From: a bacterium
GTDB lineage: Bacteria > UBA8248
Reading direction: 5' to 3'
NCBI GenBank assembly: GCA_965207065.1
Contig: OZ242260.1
Coordinates: 3,936,001 to 4,000,000, forward strand
DNA length: 64,000 nucleotides
Shown: positions 14,938 to 58,020 of the stretch, piece by piece
How the letters are laid out: each line of letters begins with the position of its first letter
Numbering within the stretch: position 1 is the stretch's first letter
Notes under the pieces: generated by a model
Databases searched by the model: none
What the model was told of the DNA's origin: nothing
What the model saw: the letters and a program-made list of their open reading frames with translations, nothing else
Made by a program: the position numbers and the translations under genes

Positions 14938-14971
14938 CAAAAAAAACTCCATGCCCAAAGGGCATGGAGTT
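14938..14971 (-). terminator. pyr leader attenuator terminator
   Basis: AACTCCATGCCC-TTT-GGGCATGGAGTT hairpin followed by a U-run on the minus strand. Confidence 0.9.
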
Positions 14972-15011
14972 CGAAGAAAAGACGAGGTAATGACAAGCAT
15001 CCGCGCTTCCT

Positions 15012-15042
15012 CCTTCGCCGCCTCACGGGACGACATTAAAGG
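15012..15042 (-). promoter_or_regulatory. PyrR-binding RNA loop
   Basis: Minus RNA CCUUUAAUGUCGUCCCGUGAGGCGGCGAAGG fits the CUUUAA..GUCCNGNGAGGC..GAAGG PyrR-site pattern. Confidence 0.9.
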
Positions 15043-15140
15043 GGAATTTCTCTATCACCAGTTTGTTTCCACCCGGTAAAGATCCGACCGGGCCATTTCG
15101 TGAAAACTAGCAGTCTTTGCAGGAAAGGGCAAGAGGAAAT

Positions 15141-43170: not shown

Positions 43171-44145
43171 CTACGGGACCAGAACGACCTTGCCCAGGAA
43201 CTGACCCTCCAGCACGTAATCGTGCGCTTCGTTTGCATCCTCGAAACTCGACGCCTTATCGACGTTGACCCGGAACGCGCCCTCTCGCAGCAGGGGCGTG
43301 AAACGGCGCACCAGCTCCGGCATTTTCGGGAACAGATTCACCACGGCCAGCCCCAGCACCACGGCGTCTTTCGTCATGACCGCAGGCACCCGGAATTCCG
43401 CGCCCGGGCCTTTGCCCGTGCCTGTGCCGATGACGATGATTTTCCCGTCCACGCGGATGGCGTCCAAATCCTTGTCGAAGTTATCGCAGGCGCAAAGCTC
43501 GACGACGACGTCGACGCCGCGCCCGCCGGTGAGCTCCATGCAACGCTCGGCGAAATCCTCCTCGCGGTAGTTGATCGTCTCGTCAGCGCCCATCTCCTTG
43601 CAGAATTTCGCCTTCGCATCGGAACTCACCGTTGCGAAAACGCGGCAACCCAGCCGCTTGGCGAGTTGAACCGCCGCCATACCCACGCCACCGGCGCCGC
43701 CCTGCACCAGCACCGTCTCGCCGGGGCCCGCCTGCGCCTTGATGACGAGCGCGTTCCACGCCGTATAGAACGCCACCGTGATGCACGCCCCTTCCTCATA
43801 GGAGTAGGCTTCGGGCAACTCGGCCATCGCGCCTGCCACGAGCCGCACGTTTTCTGAGTAGCCTCCGCCCATGGCGCGGCCATACACCCGCTGCCCGATC
43901 CGCCAGCCTTCCACGCCATCGCCCAGGGCGATGATTTCTCCGGCCGCCTCCGCGCCCGGAATATAAGGGGGCGTCACCAGCTTGGCGTAAGGGTGCTTGG
44001 CGGCCCGTATCGCCAGGTCGACCGGGTTCACGCCGACTGCGCCGGCTTTTATCAACACCTCGCCGGTTTCCGGCTTCGCGTCCTCCACTTCGTCCACCCG
44101 CATGGGGACATCCATGTTGAATTGATGTACGCGCACAGCTTTCAT
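43171..44145 (-). CDS. NADPH:quinone oxidoreductase (tandem paralog)
   Basis: Same motifs; both paralogs share GTGTGKGP. Confidence 0.9.
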   Translation of the reverse strand: MKAVRVHQFNMDVPMRVDEVEDAKPETGEVLIKAGAVGVNPVDLAIRAAKHPYAKLVTPPYIPGAEAAGEIIALGDGVEGWRIGQRVYGRAMGGGYSENVRLVAGAMAELPEAYSYEEGACITVAFYTAWNALVIKAQAGPGETVLVQGGAGGVGMAAVQLAKRLGCRVFATVSSDAKAKFCKEMGADETINYREEDFAERCMELTGGRGVDVVVELCACDNFDKDLDAIRVDGKIIVIGTGTGKGPGAEFRVPAVMTKDAVVLGLAVVNLFPKMPELVRRFTPLLREGAFRVNVDKASSFEDANEAHDYVLEGQFLGKVVLVP

Positions 44146-50813: not shown

Positions 50814-51434
50814 ATGAAGGACAGGAAAGCGAACAGGTTGGAGGGATACGATTATTCGGAAGACGGGTGTTATTTCGTGACGATTTGCGTGCAAGGCAGA
50901 GAAGAATTGTTCGGTGAAATCATCGGCGGTGAGATGGTTTTGAGCGAGGCGGGAGAAATCGTAACAGCGCGATGGCAATGGTTGTCCGAGCGATATGATT
51001 ATGTCGAATTGGATGAATACGTCATGATGCCGAATCATTTCCACGGCATATTGATCATCCAATCCCGCCGTAGGGACAGGTCGCGACCTGTCCGGGGTTC
51101 CCGCGCCTGTCCAACGCCCCCGCGCATGCACGCCACGCGGCGGGATGATGTTACCACATCGCCAGGACATATCTGTGGTAGGGACAGGTCGCGACCTGTC
51201 CCTACGGATACGTTGAAAATCAAATCATTGTCGGAATTGATAGGCGCGTTCAAAACCACGTCGTCGAAACGTATACGCGAAAACGGCTTCGCTTCCTTCA
51301 AATGGCAACGATCGTTCTACGATCACGTGATCCGGGATGATCTGGACCTGAACCGCATCCGGGAATACATCCGGGACAATCCGTTGAAATGGGCGCTCGA
51401 TGAATACAACCCGGCAAACCACGCGGCGGGATGA
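50814..51434 (+). mobile_element. REP-associated tyrosine transposase (RAYT, Y1 HUH family)
   Basis: RL.GYDYS..G.YFVTIC, MPNHFHG, WQRSFYDHVIR and EYIRDNP..W. Confidence 0.93.
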
Positions 51435-51767: not shown

Positions 51768-52022
51768 GAATCCATCCCTCGGCGGGGTTGCCAAGCGAGT
51801 CCAAACCAGCTATAGAAACTGCTGGGGGTTACTCATTATTCCCTGCCCACGCTGAGAGGACTCAAACTCTGTCGCATGGGCCGGTACAATTTGCTCCCGA
51901 CGATGTAGAGCAACCAATGAGTAACCCCCAAAAGAAGTCACCCCCTCTTTCCCGGCAACCTGCCCTTTCTTCCGTCTAGTTTTCATCAGGCCCGGCCCGC
52001 AGGCCAAAGGCGTCCTGCGCTC

Positions 52023-53702
52023 TTACCTGTGCGCCCCGAACGACCCGATGAAGGCGGTGCTTCCCGCCGGATTGCTTTGCTGTTTTACGTAAAAGGTTCC
52101 CGCAACCGAACCGGGAGCCTGAGGCGAGTACGTTGTTGTTATCGTGGTTTGTATGTTGGTCGGGTCCGTTCTATCCGTGTTTGTTGTTTGGGACCTTGTG
52201 ACCCTATGCCCAAAAAACTGGCCCTTCCAATCGCCACCGTAGGATTTTCCGTCAACCACGCCGACGGCCGTGCCAGCCGCAAAAGCGGGGTTTATATCAT
52301 CAACGAGGTTCTGTTTCTGCAGTTCGATGCTGCCATCGATTGATTGTCCGCCGGCGGTGATGTTCGTTACTTCGCCCTGAATGCTGCCCGTGTTCGTAGC
52401 TGTACCGGTTGGATTCCGGAACTCGGCGTTGAGCGTAACGTCCGCCGTGAAATAGCTTGTATCTCCACCCGCGAGGTAAGCGCCGTTCGCATTCCCGCTG
52501 TAGGTGGCCTTTACGTCTTTACCGTCGTCCACAATTGCGTCGATGGTGTTCACAGTAGTGGTTGCACAATTTCTTGTAGTACTTCCGTTCGCACCAGATG
52601 CTTCAATACCACTGCAGAAAGTCTGAGCAGTTGTTGCGATGGGCTGGCTCCCGTATGCGAATGCCGAAATCGTGGAAGCTCCAAAATTGGCGCCCACAGT
52701 AAGCCAGATGCCGGCGAGCAGGTAGTCGGTGTCGCGAAAATCCATTTCTGTGTACCGGTCATCGCCATCACTTAGATCAGTGTCTTCCACGACGTTTGTT
52801 CTTGTTCTTACATTGAGTCTCGTTTGCGTAATGTCAGTGTAGGCGTTGACGAAGGTGGAGCCGTCAGCGTTTTTCAGATCGAAGCCATGGGGGAGGCGGC
52901 CCGTTCCGGTGAGGGAGGGCGTCGTGCTGTCCGATGTAAGACCCTGTACCACAACCGTTCGCTGTCCGGTCACCCTGTCAGCGCCGGTCCCTGTATTCCC
53001 GGGGAATGTGGCGCAAGGCGCAGTACAAGTCTCGGTCTTATCATTGTTTATAGTCGTGACCATGGCCGAGCCAACGACAATGCTATCGGCTGTCACCGCG
53101 CCCAAAACAGCGTCTGCGAGGAGTTTGTTTTCTCTCACGTGCTTGATGAGCGAGGAGTTGTTCGTCAAGGCGATCACGTCCGCTTCCCGTTGTCTGCGAG
53201 CTTCCGCAACCGCGTTTACGGCGCTTTGGACCGCCGCCACAGCCGATTGTGCGCTTCTCAGGCGGGAAAGCGCCGCGTTCGCATCCGCGACCGCCATTTC
53301 CGCCGCCGCAGGCGTGGTGGCCGCATTCCCGGCGCTGCTCGCGCCTTCGACGCCCGCCAGGGCTGCCTGCGCGTCGCCGGCATGAGCGAGAGCGCTTGCT
53401 ATCTGATCCGCCGTAGCGTCTTCGTGAGTCTGCACCGCCGCCGCCGTCGAACTCGCCGTTTGCGCCAGATTACGGGCGTTAGAGACGATGCCTGCGAGCG
53501 TATTTCTCGCCTCGGCTATCCTTTCCTCATCCGTCGGCCCCGGCTCCATGCAGTCCGGGTACGTCCCGACTTGCTCCTGCGGGCATTCCATCACCGGCGT
53601 CGTCGCTGAGCCGCCGCCCCCGCCACCGCCGCAACCGGAGGCAAATGCCGCAATGCACACGACAAGTACCGCCAATCCAAAATATCTGAGCATTTTCATC
53701 AC
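52023..53702 (-). CDS. TbpB-like surface lipoprotein
   Basis: Lipobox ASGC followed by a Gly run, Ala-rich helices, and a C-terminal barrel ATYSG.A.G.Y...WKGQFFG...AGTF...GSFGAHR. Confidence 0.8.
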   Translation of the reverse strand: MMKMLRYFGLAVLVVCIAAFASGCGGGGGGGSATTPVMECPQEQVGTYPDCMEPGPTDEERIAEARNTLAGIVSNARNLAQTASSTAAAVQTHEDATADQIASALAHAGDAQAALAGVEGASSAGNAATTPAAAEMAVADANAALSRLRSAQSAVAAVQSAVNAVAEARRQREADVIALTNNSSLIKHVRENKLLADAVLGAVTADSIVVGSAMVTTINNDKTETCTAPCATFPGNTGTGADRVTGQRTVVVQGLTSDSTTPSLTGTGRLPHGFDLKNADGSTFVNAYTDITQTRLNVRTRTNVVEDTDLSDGDDRYTEMDFRDTDYLLAGIWLTVGANFGASTISAFAYGSQPIATTAQTFCSGIEASGANGSTTRNCATTTVNTIDAIVDDGKDVKATYSGNANGAYLAGGDTSYFTADVTLNAEFRNPTGTATNTGSIQGEVTNITAGGQSIDGSIELQKQNLVDDINPAFAAGTAVGVVDGKSYGGDWKGQFFGHRVTRSQTTNTDRTDPTNIQTTITTTYSPQAPGSVAGTFYVKQQSNPAGSTAFIGSFGAHR

Positions 53703-53837
53703 TTGCCCCCTGAGGGTTACGTCCCCTTCCGGGAAAGAAGGGGGCGGGCGGTTGAAACCAGGTCCAATGAATCGTTTGCTTTGAGAACCCCCGGCCCCGG
53801 GCTCAGAGAGCCCGAGGCCGAAGGGAGTCGTGCGTTG

Positions 53838-55574
53838 TTACTGCCTGTGTGCGCCGAACGCGCCGATCAGGCCCATCTTGTTGTCCCGGCTGGCCGCGCC
53901 GAATGTTCCGGCAACACCCGTCGGGTGCGTGGTGGCCGTGCCGTTCGGACCGTATAGCTGACCGCCCCAGTTGCCCCTGAGACCGGCTCCACCGAGAACG
54001 CCGTCTGTAGCGCCTGTGAACCTTCCAGCTGCGCCATCTGTCTCAGTCAATTCGGCTTTCACCAGATTCAGGGAGCCGTCAACAGCTTGTCCGGCGGCCT
54101 TGACGTTCGTAATGCTTCCCGAGACCGTCGCCAGAAGAGCGGTGTTCGTTGCGCCGCCGAAGTTGACCTCGAGCGAGGCGTCCGCGTCGAAGTACTGGAC
54201 CATGCCGCCCGCTGTATAGAGGCCGGTGGCACTTCCTGCATACGAGGCTTTACCCGTGATAGATGCAGTAACCTCATACGGCTCATTGCCGTACACGAAG
54301 GCGCCTGCCTCGGCGGGATCGATTGGGATGGCATCGCCATTATCAGCTATCAGGGAGTCCCTGCTGGAAGCGGTTACCCACATACCCCAGGCCATGTAGT
54401 CTTCGTCGTGACCGGGATCTTTTCCTGTGGCGGTTCGGTATGTGTATCCAGTATTCTCTACAATTTTCCCGTCTTCACCCACGCTTATGGCACATGGGGT
54501 AGTGGCGGGATCTGCACAGTAAATTTGAGCCGTAACCGCGACATTGTTGTCAGTGGGATCCAAGTTGAGCAACACTTCAAAATTGCTGCCATCGCTCGGT
54601 ATATCACCCGTCAATACAGCAGTTCCTTCTAGATCTGCTGTTATTTCAGTTCCTGCTCCCGTATATATGTTCTTTTCAACCGACGCTTCGATGTCCGTGG
54701 TGACGACGAGATGAGATTTCGTATTGTCGCTTGTTGTGCGTACCAGATCTGCGGCTTCGTTTCCTTTGATATGGAAACGTGAAGGCTCTTCACCCGTCCG
54801 CATTCGATTTACCGCATCAGTACCGCCATGGTCAATCGTGAATGTTGATCCACCATCCTTATGCACCACGAATGAGACTCCATCTACTGCGCTTACATCA
54901 GTCGTAGACGTATAATTGGGAGGGGTACTGGTTGCGCGCTGGTTTAGCATACCTAAAGTAGTACCAGCAGTACCATGGGTAGGAGTACCAAATCCTCCGG
55001 CAACCGCTACCGCCAACCCTGCGGTAGCCGAATTTGTCATTGCCTTTGGCGGAGTCGAACCTTCCAGCTCGGCATTTTCGATGTCGTCGCCGTTGAGCAG
55101 CTTGTTCGACAGGTTGACAAGTACCAGGCTGCTCATGCCGGACGCCATCTCCGCGCTGGCTTGGGCCGTCTCGGCCGCCGTCTTATATTCCCCGGCCATC
55201 GCCGCAGTTTCGGCCATCGCCGCCGCGTCGGACGCCTCCTTGGCCGCGTCCGCATACATCTGCGCGTTGCCGGCCGCCACGGGGTCCACCGCGCCGCCCA
55301 CGGCAGCCATCGCCGCCATGTAGGCCGCCATGGCGGCTTCCTGCGCGCCGCTCAGGGCCATTTCTTCGTCAAGGTCCGCGGCGGAGGTGCAGGAACCGTC
55401 CGCGTTATACCGGCCGCCGTCACCTTCGCACATTTCCTGCGGGGTCGGGTCCGGCATGGCGGGCGGGTCCGGCGTCGCAGCCGTTCCCCCGCCGCCGCCG
55501 CAGCCGGCCAGCGTCAGCGCGAAGGCCGCCGCCAGCATGAATGAAAAGATTCTGTTTCCGTCAAATTTCATCAC
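53838..55574 (-). CDS. TbpB-like surface lipoprotein
   Basis: Lipobox LAGC-GGGGG; ASYAGSATGLY...WGGQLYG...AGTF...GAFGAHRQ. Confidence 0.8.
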   Translation of the reverse strand: MMKFDGNRIFSFMLAAAFALTLAGCGGGGGTAATPDPPAMPDPTPQEMCEGDGGRYNADGSCTSAADLDEEMALSGAQEAAMAAYMAAMAAVGGAVDPVAAGNAQMYADAAKEASDAAAMAETAAMAGEYKTAAETAQASAEMASGMSSLVLVNLSNKLLNGDDIENAELEGSTPPKAMTNSATAGLAVAVAGGFGTPTHGTAGTTLGMLNQRATSTPPNYTSTTDVSAVDGVSFVVHKDGGSTFTIDHGGTDAVNRMRTGEEPSRFHIKGNEAADLVRTTSDNTKSHLVVTTDIEASVEKNIYTGAGTEITADLEGTAVLTGDIPSDGSNFEVLLNLDPTDNNVAVTAQIYCADPATTPCAISVGEDGKIVENTGYTYRTATGKDPGHDEDYMAWGMWVTASSRDSLIADNGDAIPIDPAEAGAFVYGNEPYEVTASITGKASYAGSATGLYTAGGMVQYFDADASLEVNFGGATNTALLATVSGSITNVKAAGQAVDGSLNLVKAELTETDGAAGRFTGATDGVLGGAGLRGNWGGQLYGPNGTATTHPTGVAGTFGAASRDNKMGLIGAFGAHRQ

Positions 55575-56205
55575 TTTTGAGTCCTCCTAGTCTCGTGACA
55601 TTAAAGAGCTTTGCAACACAAAAAATCTGAAGTGTTTGGATTCGACCTCCTTTCCTTGACTTTCCGACTTTCCTTGAATCCTTCGTTATCGGGCTTCTTT
55701 CGTTTCGTCGTGTTTCAATTCATCGGAGCGGGGCCGGTTCGCGCGGCCGCCGGCCCGGACATCTGAGTCCGGGCCGATGGCCGGCTTATCCACGAGACTG
55801 GTGTGGGATGCGTTGCGAGTTTCATGATGGATTGAGTCCTCCCGCCTCGTGATATGAACCTTCTCCGGCCCGCGCCGGAATTCTCAAGTCTCCTTCTTCA
55901 GGCGCCTTCCGGCTTGCGTGCTTCCCTGGCCGGAGCGCCGCCCCGGCGAACGAAGCGCCGGGCGTCTTTCTGACAGGTTCACGAGACGGGAGAGGGTTTT
56001 GTGGCGTGCTGCATCATGGGTTGAGTCCTCTTAGCCTCGTGAGTTGCTGCTTCCCCGGCTCCCGCCGGGCTTTCCGTCTTTCTTCAGGACCGGAGCCGCC
56101 GCTTGCGCGAACGCGAAGCTCAGGGCCTGTGCCTGAATCGATTCACGAGACTGGAGAGGGTTTTGTGGCGTGCTGCATCCTGGGTTGAGTCCTCTAGCCT
56201 CGTGA
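55566..56205 (-). promoter_or_regulatory. Tandem leader array: three hairpin-enclosed micro-ORF units plus the homologous lipoprotein RBS
   Basis: TCACGAG(G/A)C..GAGGACTCAA..ATG motif at 56143-56205, 55979-56042, 55791-55852 and 55566-55598. Confidence 0.75.
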
Positions 56206-56509
56206 TTTCGTACTGCATCCGACCGGAATCTTTCTGGGTCATCGTCTTCCGGTCTGTCAAGCCATGCGCAAGTGCGGGCTTAGGGTTCCCGGCTCATCCA
56301 GCTTTCGCGGCGTGATCCGCGTCGTGTCGAGCGGGCGGCCCTGATAGCGACTACTCTCGCGTATTGCTTGACATATATGATAGTGTGGCAAGTATTCCGC
56401 TCTTGTCAACCCTTTAATTGAACTTGCGCGCAACTTTCAATCCGTCCGCTTCCGCAGGGTGACGGATCGAGTATGAACCAACGGGGTTTGATGATCAAAC
56501 GGGAGGGGG

Positions 56510-56900
56510 CGTAGCCGGACAGCCCCCAGGAGGGGTTGTCCGGGGCCTCCGTGGTTGTCCTGAATGACAGAGGGGTTGTCCCTGCAATAAATGCGGTTTC
56601 GTTCATCATCGATCCCGTAGGGACAGGCCTCCGTGCCTGTCCTCATGGCAACCATCCTGAAAAAGGACAGGCACGGAGGCCTGTCCCTACGGTCGAAACC
56701 CAACCGACGAGGGAGGAACCGTGTTACTACAATCCCATCGCGGCGTGCGTGGGTGTGATGGTTTTGTAGGGGTCGCATATATGCGACCCGCATTGTGACG
56801 GCGAAAAAGCACGGGACGCATAATATGTCGGACATATATGTCCGACCTACACATGGGCGGCGGTCCAACCATCTCCCCCCAAAACCCCCCCTACCCCCCC
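56510..56900. repeat. Mixed GTAG-REP cluster
   Basis: GTAGGGACAGGCCTCCGTGCCTGTCC inverted doublet, GGGTCGCATATATGCGACCC and GTCGGACATATATGTCCGAC. Confidence 0.8.
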
Positions 56901-57013
56901 GCCCCGCGCATGTTGTAAGATGTCCCTCCCGGCCGAGGGACGGCGCGGGCCTTTTCCGCATGGTTGTATGCCGCCGCTCCCGAGGCCGGGCTTTCTGAAC
57001 GGGAGATACCCCG

Positions 57014-57982
57014 ATGCCCGCCCCGCCCGGCCTTCCCGACCGCCTGCTCGTCGCCGTGGGCGGCAACGCGACCCACCCGCCCGAGATACGCGGCACCGCA
57101 GCCGAACAGGCCGCCATCGCCGCCGCCACGGGCCGCGCGCTGCTCCCGCTGCTCCAGCTCGAGAACGAACTCATCGTCACACACGGGAACGGCCCCGTGG
57201 TCGGCAAGATACTCATGCGCCAGGCGGTGTCGAGCGAGCAGGTGACGCCCATGACGCTCGACATCTGCGTCGCCCACAGCCAGGGCGGCATCGCCTACCT
57301 CCTGATGCAGGCGTTCGAGAACGCGCTCAGGCGCGCGGGGAACCCCCGCCACGTGGTCTGCCTCCTGACGCAGGTCGAGGTCGACCCGGCGGACCCGGCC
57401 TTCGACGCGCCCACCAAGTTCGTGGGCTACACCTACACCGAAGAGGAGGCCAGAAGATACGAGCGCGAGATGGGCTGGACGTTCCGGGAGGATTCAGGAC
57501 GCGGCTGGCGGCACGTGGTCGCATCGCCCATGCCGAAGCACATCGTGGACATCTCGCTCATCGAGACGATCGCCAGGAGCGGCGCGGTGGTGATCGCGGG
57601 CGGAGGAGGCGGCATCCCCGTCGTGCGGGAAGCCGACGGCGCGCGCCGCGGGCGCGCCGCGGTCATCGACAAGGATTTGACGTCGGCCTTGATGGCGAAC
57701 GTGCTCGGCGTCGAGACGATGATGATATTAACGGCCGTGCCGCACGTTTCGATCCACTTCGGGACGCCTGAGCAGCAGGATTTGGAGAGAGTCTCCCTTG
57801 CAGACCTCAGGAAATACCACGCCCAGGGCCACTTCCCGCCCGGCAGCATGGGCCCCAAGATCGAGGCGGCCGTCCGCTTTCTGGAGGGCGGCGGGCGGCG
57901 CGTCCACATCGCCGCGCTCGAGGACGCCGTCCCCGCCCTGAGAGGCGATGCGGGGACTTGTATTTATAAAGAGGAGGGGTGA
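57014..57982 (+). CDS. arcC: Carbamate kinase
   Basis: VAVGGNA, THGNGP.VG, PTKFVG, GGGGIPV, AVIDKD and GSMGPK. Confidence 0.93.
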   Translation: MPAPPGLPDRLLVAVGGNATHPPEIRGTAAEQAAIAAATGRALLPLLQLENELIVTHGNGPVVGKILMRQAVSSEQVTPMTLDICVAHSQGGIAYLLMQAFENALRRAGNPRHVVCLLTQVEVDPADPAFDAPTKFVGYTYTEEEARRYEREMGWTFREDSGRGWRHVVASPMPKHIVDISLIETIARSGAVVIAGGGGGIPVVREADGARRGRAAVIDKDLTSALMANVLGVETMMILTAVPHVSIHFGTPEQQDLERVSLADLRKYHAQGHFPPGSMGPKIEAAVRFLEGGGRRVHIAALEDAVPALRGDAGTCIYKEEG

Positions 57983-58020
57983 CCGTAGCCGGACAGGCCC
58001 CGATGACGAGAGAGGAAAAA

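Follow-up and report, generated by a model that had tools for sequence, protein, structure and literature searches.

Three ~64-nucleotide (nt) units lie upstream of two lipoprotein genes on the minus strand of a 64,000-nt stretch of a bacterial genome (hereafter the window; UBA8248 lineage, assembly GCA_965207065.1, contig OZ242260.1, positions 3,936,001 to 4,000,000 of the forward strand). The units fall within 56205–55790 of the window, and a fourth copy of their 5′ arm is found at the lipoprotein start itself. Each unit is composed of a 5′ arm with a box that resembles a Shine–Dalgarno (SD) sequence, a C-rich loop that contains an ATG, and a 3′ arm that is complementary to the 5′ arm with one G–U pair. 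Judged by how base changes are distributed among relatives, the stems are RNA hairpins inside a structured 5′ leader of 0.6–0.95 kb. We read this leader as a cis-acting translational switch that would occlude the ribosome-binding site (RBS) of the lipoprotein gene, and we assign this reading a probability of about 0.45.

A first-pass annotation of this DNA had described three minus-strand units with paired arms around an RBS and a very short open reading frame (micro-ORF). This description is borne out, and the positions that it gave for the reading frames (56178–56143, 56014–55979 and from 55825) are all correct; the third frame spans 36 codons and ends at 55715. The SD-like box is situated 8–11 nt 5′ of the micro-ORF ATG. 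In units 1 and 2, the TGA stop lies inside the 3′ arm, and unit 3 has TGG instead. The true lipoprotein start had been said to share the 5′ arm and to lack a 3′ arm; we located arm and box there at 55598–55577, with no full 3′ arm. The letters of the gene's start codons could, however, pair with a 5′ arm over its first six letters. The pattern of 5′ arm plus box matches four times in the window, compared with no match in 100 shuffles, and it likewise matches four times in the whole 4,476,866-base genome, with 4/4 matches at the lipoprotein leader locus. In a repeat search, the units were returned as a three-copy, 54-nt family with 74–96% identity and the arm pairs were listed as inverted repeats. 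Tandem Repeats Finder returned no array over the units because the spacers between them vary in length.

The motif was also found upstream of lipoprotein genes in related genomes, where the first-pass annotation had proposed to look for it. A homologous leader (E ≤ 1e-20) is present in 12 of the 23 genomes of the genus, this one included, and two further leaders were retrieved from metagenome contigs by a search with the gene-start motif. The remaining 11 genomes of the genus yielded no homologous leader, and neither did 16 of the 18 genomes searched outside it; the last 2 of those 18 gave short, weak matches only. The comparison set consists of these 14 leaders (12 genomes, all from one genus, and 2 metagenome contigs), and our statements on conservation rest on alignments of the units, leaders and promoter region rather than on identity figures for each segment. 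The 14 leaders hold 44 units, 2–4 per leader: 31 of the kind represented by units 1 and 2 (A-type) and 13 of the kind represented by unit 3 (B-type). A common plan is seen in 14/14 leaders: a palindrome, a TTGACA box, a domain of ~170–190 nt and one to three A-type units. The last unit is B-type with TGG in 13 of the 14, and the 3′ part of the plan comprises a very stable GC hairpin, a purine-rich box, a U-rich box and the gene arm-plus-SD. This 21-nt arm-plus-SD is present in all 14 leaders, two of which were retrieved with that very string, and the gene-start region is invariant in an alignment of 13 sequences. The mature lipoprotein coding sequence and the spacers diverge quickly relative to the leader units. 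In the 12 genomes measured, 591 to 943 nt separate the TTGACA box and the gene-start arm.

To characterize the local hairpin, 38 units from 12 genomes were aligned and folded, and pair statistics were taken on the 36 distinct rows. Pairing is retained in 97.2% of 432 cells, compared with 46–52% when the partners are slid. All one-sided stem changes give G–U: A–U changes to G–U in 4 + 4 distinct rows and U–A changes to U–G in nine, and one G–U pair is retained in 32 of the 36. Because stem G–U pairs would be A–C mismatches on the other strand and would not pair in duplex DNA either, the selected structure is the RNA of the lipoprotein-sense strand. The domain 5′ of the units provides independent support for the sense strand as a structured RNA: RNAalifold (14 sequences) predicts 26 pairs in it, six of them with compensatory changes on both sides. 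In the GC hairpin that follows the last unit, the stem changes are again all one-sided and all stay G–U.

Other uses of the stems were considered. Small RNAs encoded on the opposite strand were rejected: two plus-strand hairpin-plus-T sites exist, the T-runs are unconserved in relatives and the stem G–U pairs form only on the sense strand. These two opposite-strand terminator-like sites are also not above shuffle expectation. Nor did we find the promoter-like or terminator-like sites that tandem independent small-RNA genes would each have on the sense strand; a consensus scan returned no promoter-like site for the units there, and no intrinsic terminator-like site was seen on the minus strand between 53500 and 57000. 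A DNA-level operator or mobile element was ruled out by the uniqueness of the motif to this locus and by the G–U argument. Contigs assembled from RNA libraries cover 56094–56382, 56001–56206 with 56283–56356, 55830–56030, and 55566–55730, and they bridge the junctions between the 5′ domain and unit 1, between unit 2 and unit 3, between unit and spacer, and between leader and start codon. They come from four runs, used as contigs only and as a small share, and gaps in their cover carry no meaning; some further small-share RNA entries are labelled sponge metagenome. The contigs are compatible with one long transcript.

Each 3′ arm has more than one potential partner. The reverse complement of an A-type 3′ arm fits a B-type 5′ arm with one wobble, and against the gene-start arm an A-type 3′ arm forms ten Watson–Crick pairs, a one-base bulge and four pairs into the SD; it fits A-type 5′ arms less well than either. 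In this leader, the 3′ arm of unit 2 and the 5′ arm of unit 3 form 15 contiguous pairs, and 14–16 contiguous pairs are found at most junctions into the last unit. One arm base is G in 44/44 units and A in 14/14 gene starts, a fixed difference through which the 3′ arms would pair with the gene start by Watson–Crick and with unit arms by wobble. The minimum free energy (MFE) fold of the 861-nt leader (−316.9 kcal/mol, z = −3.57 against 20 shuffles) joins 3′ arm 1 to 5′ arm 2, 3′ arm 2 to 5′ arm 3 and 3′ arm 3 to the gene-start arm. RNAalifold on 13 leaders likewise predicts 13 pairs between the last 3′ arm and the gene-start arm. The first-pass annotation had suggested that an upstream arm could pair with the lipoprotein start into the SD, and for the 3′ arms MFE folding, RNAalifold and the duplex fits support this.

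The next-unit duplex is more stable than the unit's own duplex in 22 of 30 upstream units, and for the last unit the two choices, its own 5′ arm or the gene-start arm, are about equal in stability. When the registers were forced, the shifted pairing differed from the local one by −11.5 to +14.3 kcal/mol (shifted minus local) on totals near −300. The most telling observation on the choice is a double substitution shared by three leaders, L005 (that of this window), L037 and L038. At a position where ten others read U, the 5′ arm of their last unit reads G, and the 3′ arm before it reads C in place of A. The pair of changes keeps the inter-unit pair (U–A to G–C) and breaks both local pairs, a sign in favour of the shifted register that is suggestive and not proof. 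The CCA/CCC difference between units 1 and 2, which had been listed as synonymous, involves the same base, and this base pairs with the changed base in the unit 3 5′ arm; RNA pairing explains the difference better than codon drift does.

These observations can be arranged into the following mechanism. A single structured 5′ leader RNA, ~800 nt long here, would run from a promoter near 56400 to the two-gene lipoprotein operon. The 5′ arm, approximately a copy of the ribosome-binding region of the gene, would serve as an RBS mimic and the complementary 3′ arm as an anti-RBS. In the local register, every module would close on itself and the true RBS would be free. In the shifted register, the partner of each 3′ arm would be the 5′ arm of the following module, and the final 3′ arm would close on the gene-start arm as far as the first G's of the SD. 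The array would set access to the RBS through the choice between these two registers. By unwinding the GC hairpin and the last 3′ arm, ribosomes on the upstream ORF (uORF) of the last unit would bias that choice; translation of this uORF may help to decide the outcome because the frame runs through both the last 3′ arm and the stable GC hairpin. The first module adjoins the covarying 5′ domain, and its state could tip the entire chain; the 5′ domain could be a sensor, either riboswitch-like or protein-binding. The upstream ORFs of 11–12 codons would be an inheritance from the origin of the module as a copy of the gene start and would be individually dispensable. Co-transcription, translation of the uORFs, register switching and a signal for it are parts of this mechanism that we infer. 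The multi-stage leader-peptide or translational switch put forward in the first-pass annotation is supported in part, by the conserved, functional-looking units on the sense strand, by the lack of a terminator before the gene and by the reach of the 3′ arms to the gene start; selection on the peptide is not supported.

Several points weigh against RBS occlusion by this leader. The gene-start duplex beats the last unit's own duplex in just 7 of 14 leaders, and the forced local register is more stable in eight leaders, approximately equal (0.1 kcal/mol) in two and less stable in four. The pairing with the gene start reaches just the first G's of the SD, and co-transcriptional folding should favour local hairpins. 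The double substitution counts as one evolutionary change, since the three sequences that share it are close relatives, and unit 1 of L037 has the same C without a change in its partner. Conserved pairing of the arms, which the first-pass annotation had made a condition of its reading, is seen in the 97.2% of cells and in the changes that keep G–U; two-sided covariation, which it had proposed to test, is nearly absent, with such a change in just 1 of 12 arm pairs, a result reached by 49 of 500 shuffles. Covariation is weak for both registers because nearly all arm positions are invariant. The RNA contigs give neither strand nor ends nor level, and two of the four runs were merely guessed to be RNA. 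The conserved frame of the last uORF is not cleanly separable from the hairpins that this uORF encodes.

A more far-reaching form of the occlusion switch, which we consider unlikely, is a strand-exchange relay made of RNA. In this form, a state set by the 5′ domain or by ribosomes on the uORFs would be passed from module to module over ~600 nt by the register shift of near-identical arms, closing or freeing the RBS, and the copy number of modules would be free. A repeated element described below (element E), which shares the box, would then belong to one control language for the lipoprotein family, and a SecM-like last uORF would be a sub-case.

The array can also be read in terms of its peptides. 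According to this explanation, translated leader peptides are selected for M-x-x-A-T-x-P-[ST]-P-V-S, as the first-pass annotation had proposed, and ribosome behaviour, such as slow termination at the UGA in the 3′ arm, drives a multi-stage switch. An ATG-to-stop ORF of 11–12 codons (10–13 residues over the set, with the stop within the 3′ arm) is intact in 22 of the 31 A-type upstream units, and the SD-like box is suitably placed 5′ of its ATG. Moreover, the most divergent genome (L016) retains both ORFs, although one has gained 3 nt in frame and the other ends in TAA rather than TGA, and in unit 1 of L038 an in-frame upstream ATG stands in for a lost one. However, the ORF is absent or frame-shifted in the other 9 of the 31 units, with arms and box kept in all nine. 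The losses comprise five orthologous first or second units without ATG, unit 3 of L007, unit 2 of L015 and a +1 frameshift in L009 and L011, and they represent at least four independent events. Unit 3 of L007 has AAG for ATG, whereas its sister L008 retains the ATG; unit 2 of L015 has neither ATG nor stop. In six of the seven ATG-less units, the ATG letters have become GCG, which completes a perfect four-pair inner stem, and these GCG units fold at −24 to −28 kcal/mol, compared with −15 to −24 kcal/mol for the others. The G of the ATG is invariant in 38/38 aligned units, whether or not they have the ATG codon, 1-nt length changes are present in the ‘coding’ part of upstream units, and the PVS-stop residues simply translate the 3′ arm. 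Both registers would, in addition, bury the SD-like box and the ATG. We regard selection on the peptide as quite unlikely. We conclude that the A-type ORFs are ancestral, perhaps weakly maintained and not individually required, and that the micro-peptide motif for the most part reflects constraints on the RNA.

The uORF of the last unit behaves differently. It is intact and in the same frame in 13/13 B-type units, and lost ATGs are replaced by in-frame upstream ATGs (L015). The sole 1-nt length change around it is located in the spacer 5′ of the ATG. Its N-terminal part falls into several diverged sequence families with lengths that are equal modulo 3, and the frame continues across the last 3′ arm and then the GC hairpin. 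The last uORF alone behaves like a conserved reading frame. The frame conservation in homologues that had been anticipated for all the micro-ORFs therefore holds for the last uORF and fails for the upstream ones.

The box next to the SD is found beyond this operon. Seven paralogous starts in the genome (G000) share the SD followed by GGACTCA, near positions 43764(−), 61693(−), 96660(−), 108375(+), 121768(+), 4461216(−) and 4476767(+). At least six of the seven share near-identical signal-peptide DNA, and their mature parts diverge. Five of the seven have a 9-nt box farther upstream whose predicted pairing with the RBS would close a loop of ~50 nt, a hint that RBS occlusion may be a theme of the family. 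The GGACTCAA box, which in the lipoprotein genes comes after the SD, is also displayed by one hairpin of element E, a repeated structured element of ~110 nt with a long closing stem and two inner hairpins. Element E has nine copies in the genome, one in the window and eight others (loci L039–L047), with compensatory changes in 7 of 32 predicted pairs among them. Seven of the nine copies end in a C-run and a U-run, and the window copy is one of the two without a U-run. In this genome and in others, several copies, that of the window among them, lie a few kb from lipoprotein paralogue starts and on the strand opposite to them; the copies have no consistent same-strand gene upstream, and no Rfam match was obtained for the element. 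Element E may be a new small RNA or a structured terminator, and its membership in the leader system is uncertain. In the window, an ORF adjoining it (50814–51434, plus strand) has a weak match to an IS200-like Y1 transposase (E = 3e-05).

Three further explanations were weighed. The first is Rho-dependent attenuation: Rho would load on the unit interiors, which are rich in C and poor in G, hairpins or uORF translation would mask these sites, and the level of transcription into the lipoprotein genes would be set in this way. In 40-nt windows, the C/G ratio of the unit interiors reaches 2.7–3.0, and that of the spacers is no more than ~1; the genome has a Rho gene, and a long leader without a sense-strand intrinsic terminator and with a conserved uORF downstream of the units is what this explanation would lead one to expect. 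The C-rich stretches are, however, just ~40–50 nt long and would be half base-paired in both registers, and RBS-copying 5′ arms and gene-start-matching 3′ arms are left unexplained. To Rho attenuation we give a low probability; it does not exclude a switch that occludes the RBS and could act alongside it. The 3′ arms are equally unexplained if the modules are decoys whose copies of the RBS box titrate a trans-acting factor of the lipoprotein-family RBS, whether a protein or an RNA such as element E. This idea draws on the GGACTCA box after the SD at all seven paralogous starts, on the display of that box in the nine copies of element E, several of them a few kb from paralogue starts, and on the five paralogue leaders with an upstream box complementary to the RBS, with which such an RNA could compete. 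The protein version was tried with CsrA and rejected: PF02599 has 0 matches in the genome (96% complete), with a control search positive in 3 of 14 named genomes, and the GGA letters are in stems, not loops. For the RNA version, element E is a putative RNA, and two of its copies, including that of the window, are without a U-run. We find a sponge of this kind improbable. Finally, the units could be decayed tandem duplications of the 5′ end of the gene that have no present function. The 5′ arm, SD-like box and start codon do resemble gene-start copies, the number of units varies from two to four per leader and some micro-ORFs are decaying. Against this, the units are kept in 14 leaders of different species while spacers and mature coding sequence diverge, stem changes are limited to those that keep a pair as G–U, and the G of 44/44 units remains distinct from the A of 14/14 gene starts. 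The 3′ arm, moreover, is not a by-product of duplication, since it has no counterpart in the gene. Neutral duplication fits the origin of the units and not their maintenance, and as a full account it seems very improbable to us. The features of the locus are listed in Table 1.

Table 1. Coordinates of the leader, the lipoprotein operon and element E in the window.
Feature	Position	Strand	Description
16-nt palindrome	56421..56436	−	5′ of the −35 box; candidate transcription-regulator site
Candidate leader promoter	56380..56409	−	TTGACA at 56409-56404, weak −10 ~18 nt downstream
5′ structured domain	56206..56373	−	Long closing helix, inner helices, hairpin with conserved loop
Unit 1 (A-type)	56143..56205	−	Arm plus SD-like box, C-rich loop, 11-codon ORF 56178-56143, 3′ arm holding TGA
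Spacer 1	56043..56142	−	GC-rich hairpins, including a tetraloop hairpin immediately 5′ of unit 2
Unit 2 (A-type)	55979..56042	−	ORF 56017/56014-55979
Spacer 2	55853..55978	−	GC-rich hairpins
Unit 3 (B-type, last)	55790..55852	−	Arm plus SD-like box, uORF start, 3′ arm ending in TGG, not TGA
uORF of last unit	55715..55825	−	36 codons plus stop here; 33-46 codons in relatives
GC-rich hairpin in last uORF	55741..55785	−	Very stable, ~18 pairs, 6-nt variable loop
Pre-gene stretch	55599..55714	−	Purine-rich box with a second GGAGG, then U-rich/AT-rich conserved stretch
True gene start	55569..55598	−	5′ arm (A where units have G), SD GGAGGA, GTG 55574 / ATG 55571
Lipoprotein gene 1	53838..55574	−	578 aa, lipobox LAGC
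Lipoprotein gene 2	52023..53702	−	559 aa, lipobox ASGC
Element E copy	51815..51945	+	Convergent to the operon, ~90 nt past the operon stop codon

At the 5′ end of the leader, the TTGACA box is invariant in 12/12 aligned genomes, although a consensus promoter scan did not call the candidate promoter. The 16-nt palindrome next to it is nearly invariant across the 12-genome alignment and is duplicated in L016; it is probably a binding site for a regulator. In the alignment of relatives, the sense-strand sequence of the spacer 1 hairpin loops is G-purine-purine-A for most genomes. Farther upstream, a near-perfect palindromic hairpin of ~88 nt (56609–56696) gives spurious matches to microRNA families on both strands. 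GC-rich repeats that resemble it are also located upstream of the leader in relatives, and it is probably a repeat akin to repetitive extragenic palindromes. The first-pass annotation did not recognize the array as a described family, and comparison with Rfam agrees: a cmscan with Rfam 15 (E ≤ 10) over 53000–58000 returned nothing at 55566–56400, neither over the units nor over the rest of the leader. At the gathering threshold, the only match in the whole window is a PyrR binding-site RNA (RF00515) at 14938–15046 on the minus strand, at 54.7 bits for a gathering score of 54.

Both lipoprotein ORFs begin with a hydrophobic N terminus, a signal peptide that ends in the lipobox cysteine. In gene 1, alignment with relatives shows conserved signal-peptide DNA and a highly variable mature part. 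Neither gene product has a sequence match in Pfam, NCBIfam or PDB, PF01298 included. The nearest ESM Atlas clusters carry TbpB_B_D (PF01298) in 10–66% of their members (score 0.88–0.91), and we take the label ‘TbpB-like’ as a lead only. Upstream of the leader, genes for a carbamate kinase and an AtzD/TrzD-type amidohydrolase lie on the opposite strand, which makes the lipoprotein operon its own unit.

Among known systems, the leader invites comparison with translational attenuation of the ermC and cat type, in which a leader ORF is embedded in hairpins and alternative pairing frees or hides the RBS of the downstream gene. A short upstream ORF inside a hairpin, 5′ of the regulated gene, is present here as well. 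An RBS-sequestering helix is also predicted, by MFE folding and RNAalifold, but its pairs are invariant and it is the more stable choice in just 7 of 14 leaders. Here, by contrast, the module is repeated two to four times over 250–720 nt, the upstream ORFs appear dispensable in 9 of 31 units, the anti-RBS arm is 230–260 nt from the RBS and no inducer is known. The trp and his attenuators combine a leader peptide with a chain of mutually exclusive helices (1:2, 2:3, 3:4), and a leader peptide with a register-shifting chain of exclusive helices is what the present array resembles. It differs from them in that the sense strand has no terminator hairpin with a U-run, the peptides contain no regulatory codon run, that is, no repeated codon for one amino acid, and the output helix would overlap the RBS rather than a terminator. 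Decoy RNAs of the CsrB/RsmZ type titrate an RBS-binding factor with repeated GGA-containing motifs. Many repeats of an RBS-like GGA motif are likewise found here, but the motif is in stems, and it is the regulated mRNA itself that carries the repeats, in cis.

RNA thermometers and translational riboswitches share with this leader hairpins in the 5′ untranslated region that hold SD or SD-like letters and control access to the RBS. The guanidine-II riboswitch is an SD-sequestering element with tandem hairpins, according to the excerpt of PMC10351892; relative to what that excerpt describes, the modules here are 64 nt long, each with an RBS copy and an anti-RBS, and have no evident ligand pocket. 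The last uORF, in turn, reads TPVSWIS at residues 8–14 and R-x-G-P at residues 29–32; among the relatives, 11 of 13 have R-x-G-P. The SecM arrest peptide, as given in the excerpted text of PMC10192921, has 17 residues and contains the parts TPVWIS and RAGP. As far as that text allows a comparison, the likeness lies in these words and in the position of the uORF upstream of a gene with a possibly hidden RBS. The differences are a spacing from W-I to G-P of 13 or 20 residues, compared with 11 in SecM, a uORF of 33–46 amino acids without a signal peptide, and downstream genes for lipoproteins rather than secretion machinery. The conserved SecM-like residues are encoded by stems, namely those of the 3′ arm and the GC hairpin, so constraints on the RNA may account for them.

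A literature search of listings and abstracts found no description of such a leader, which is not proof that none exists. We file the leader as RBS-occluding leader control and not as a member of a described family. The genes that it would regulate belong to a fast-evolving, probably surface-exposed lipoprotein family of an uncultured lineage, and the array illustrates how apparently conserved micro-peptides can arise as a by-product of RNA stems. If our reading is true, the leader would represent an undescribed form of bacterial translational control in which modules made of an RBS copy and its antisense are chained into two global foldings. Compared with the attenuators considered above, it would carry the idea of helices that exclude one another over to an array of modules whose copy number varies and which acts across hundreds of nucleotides.

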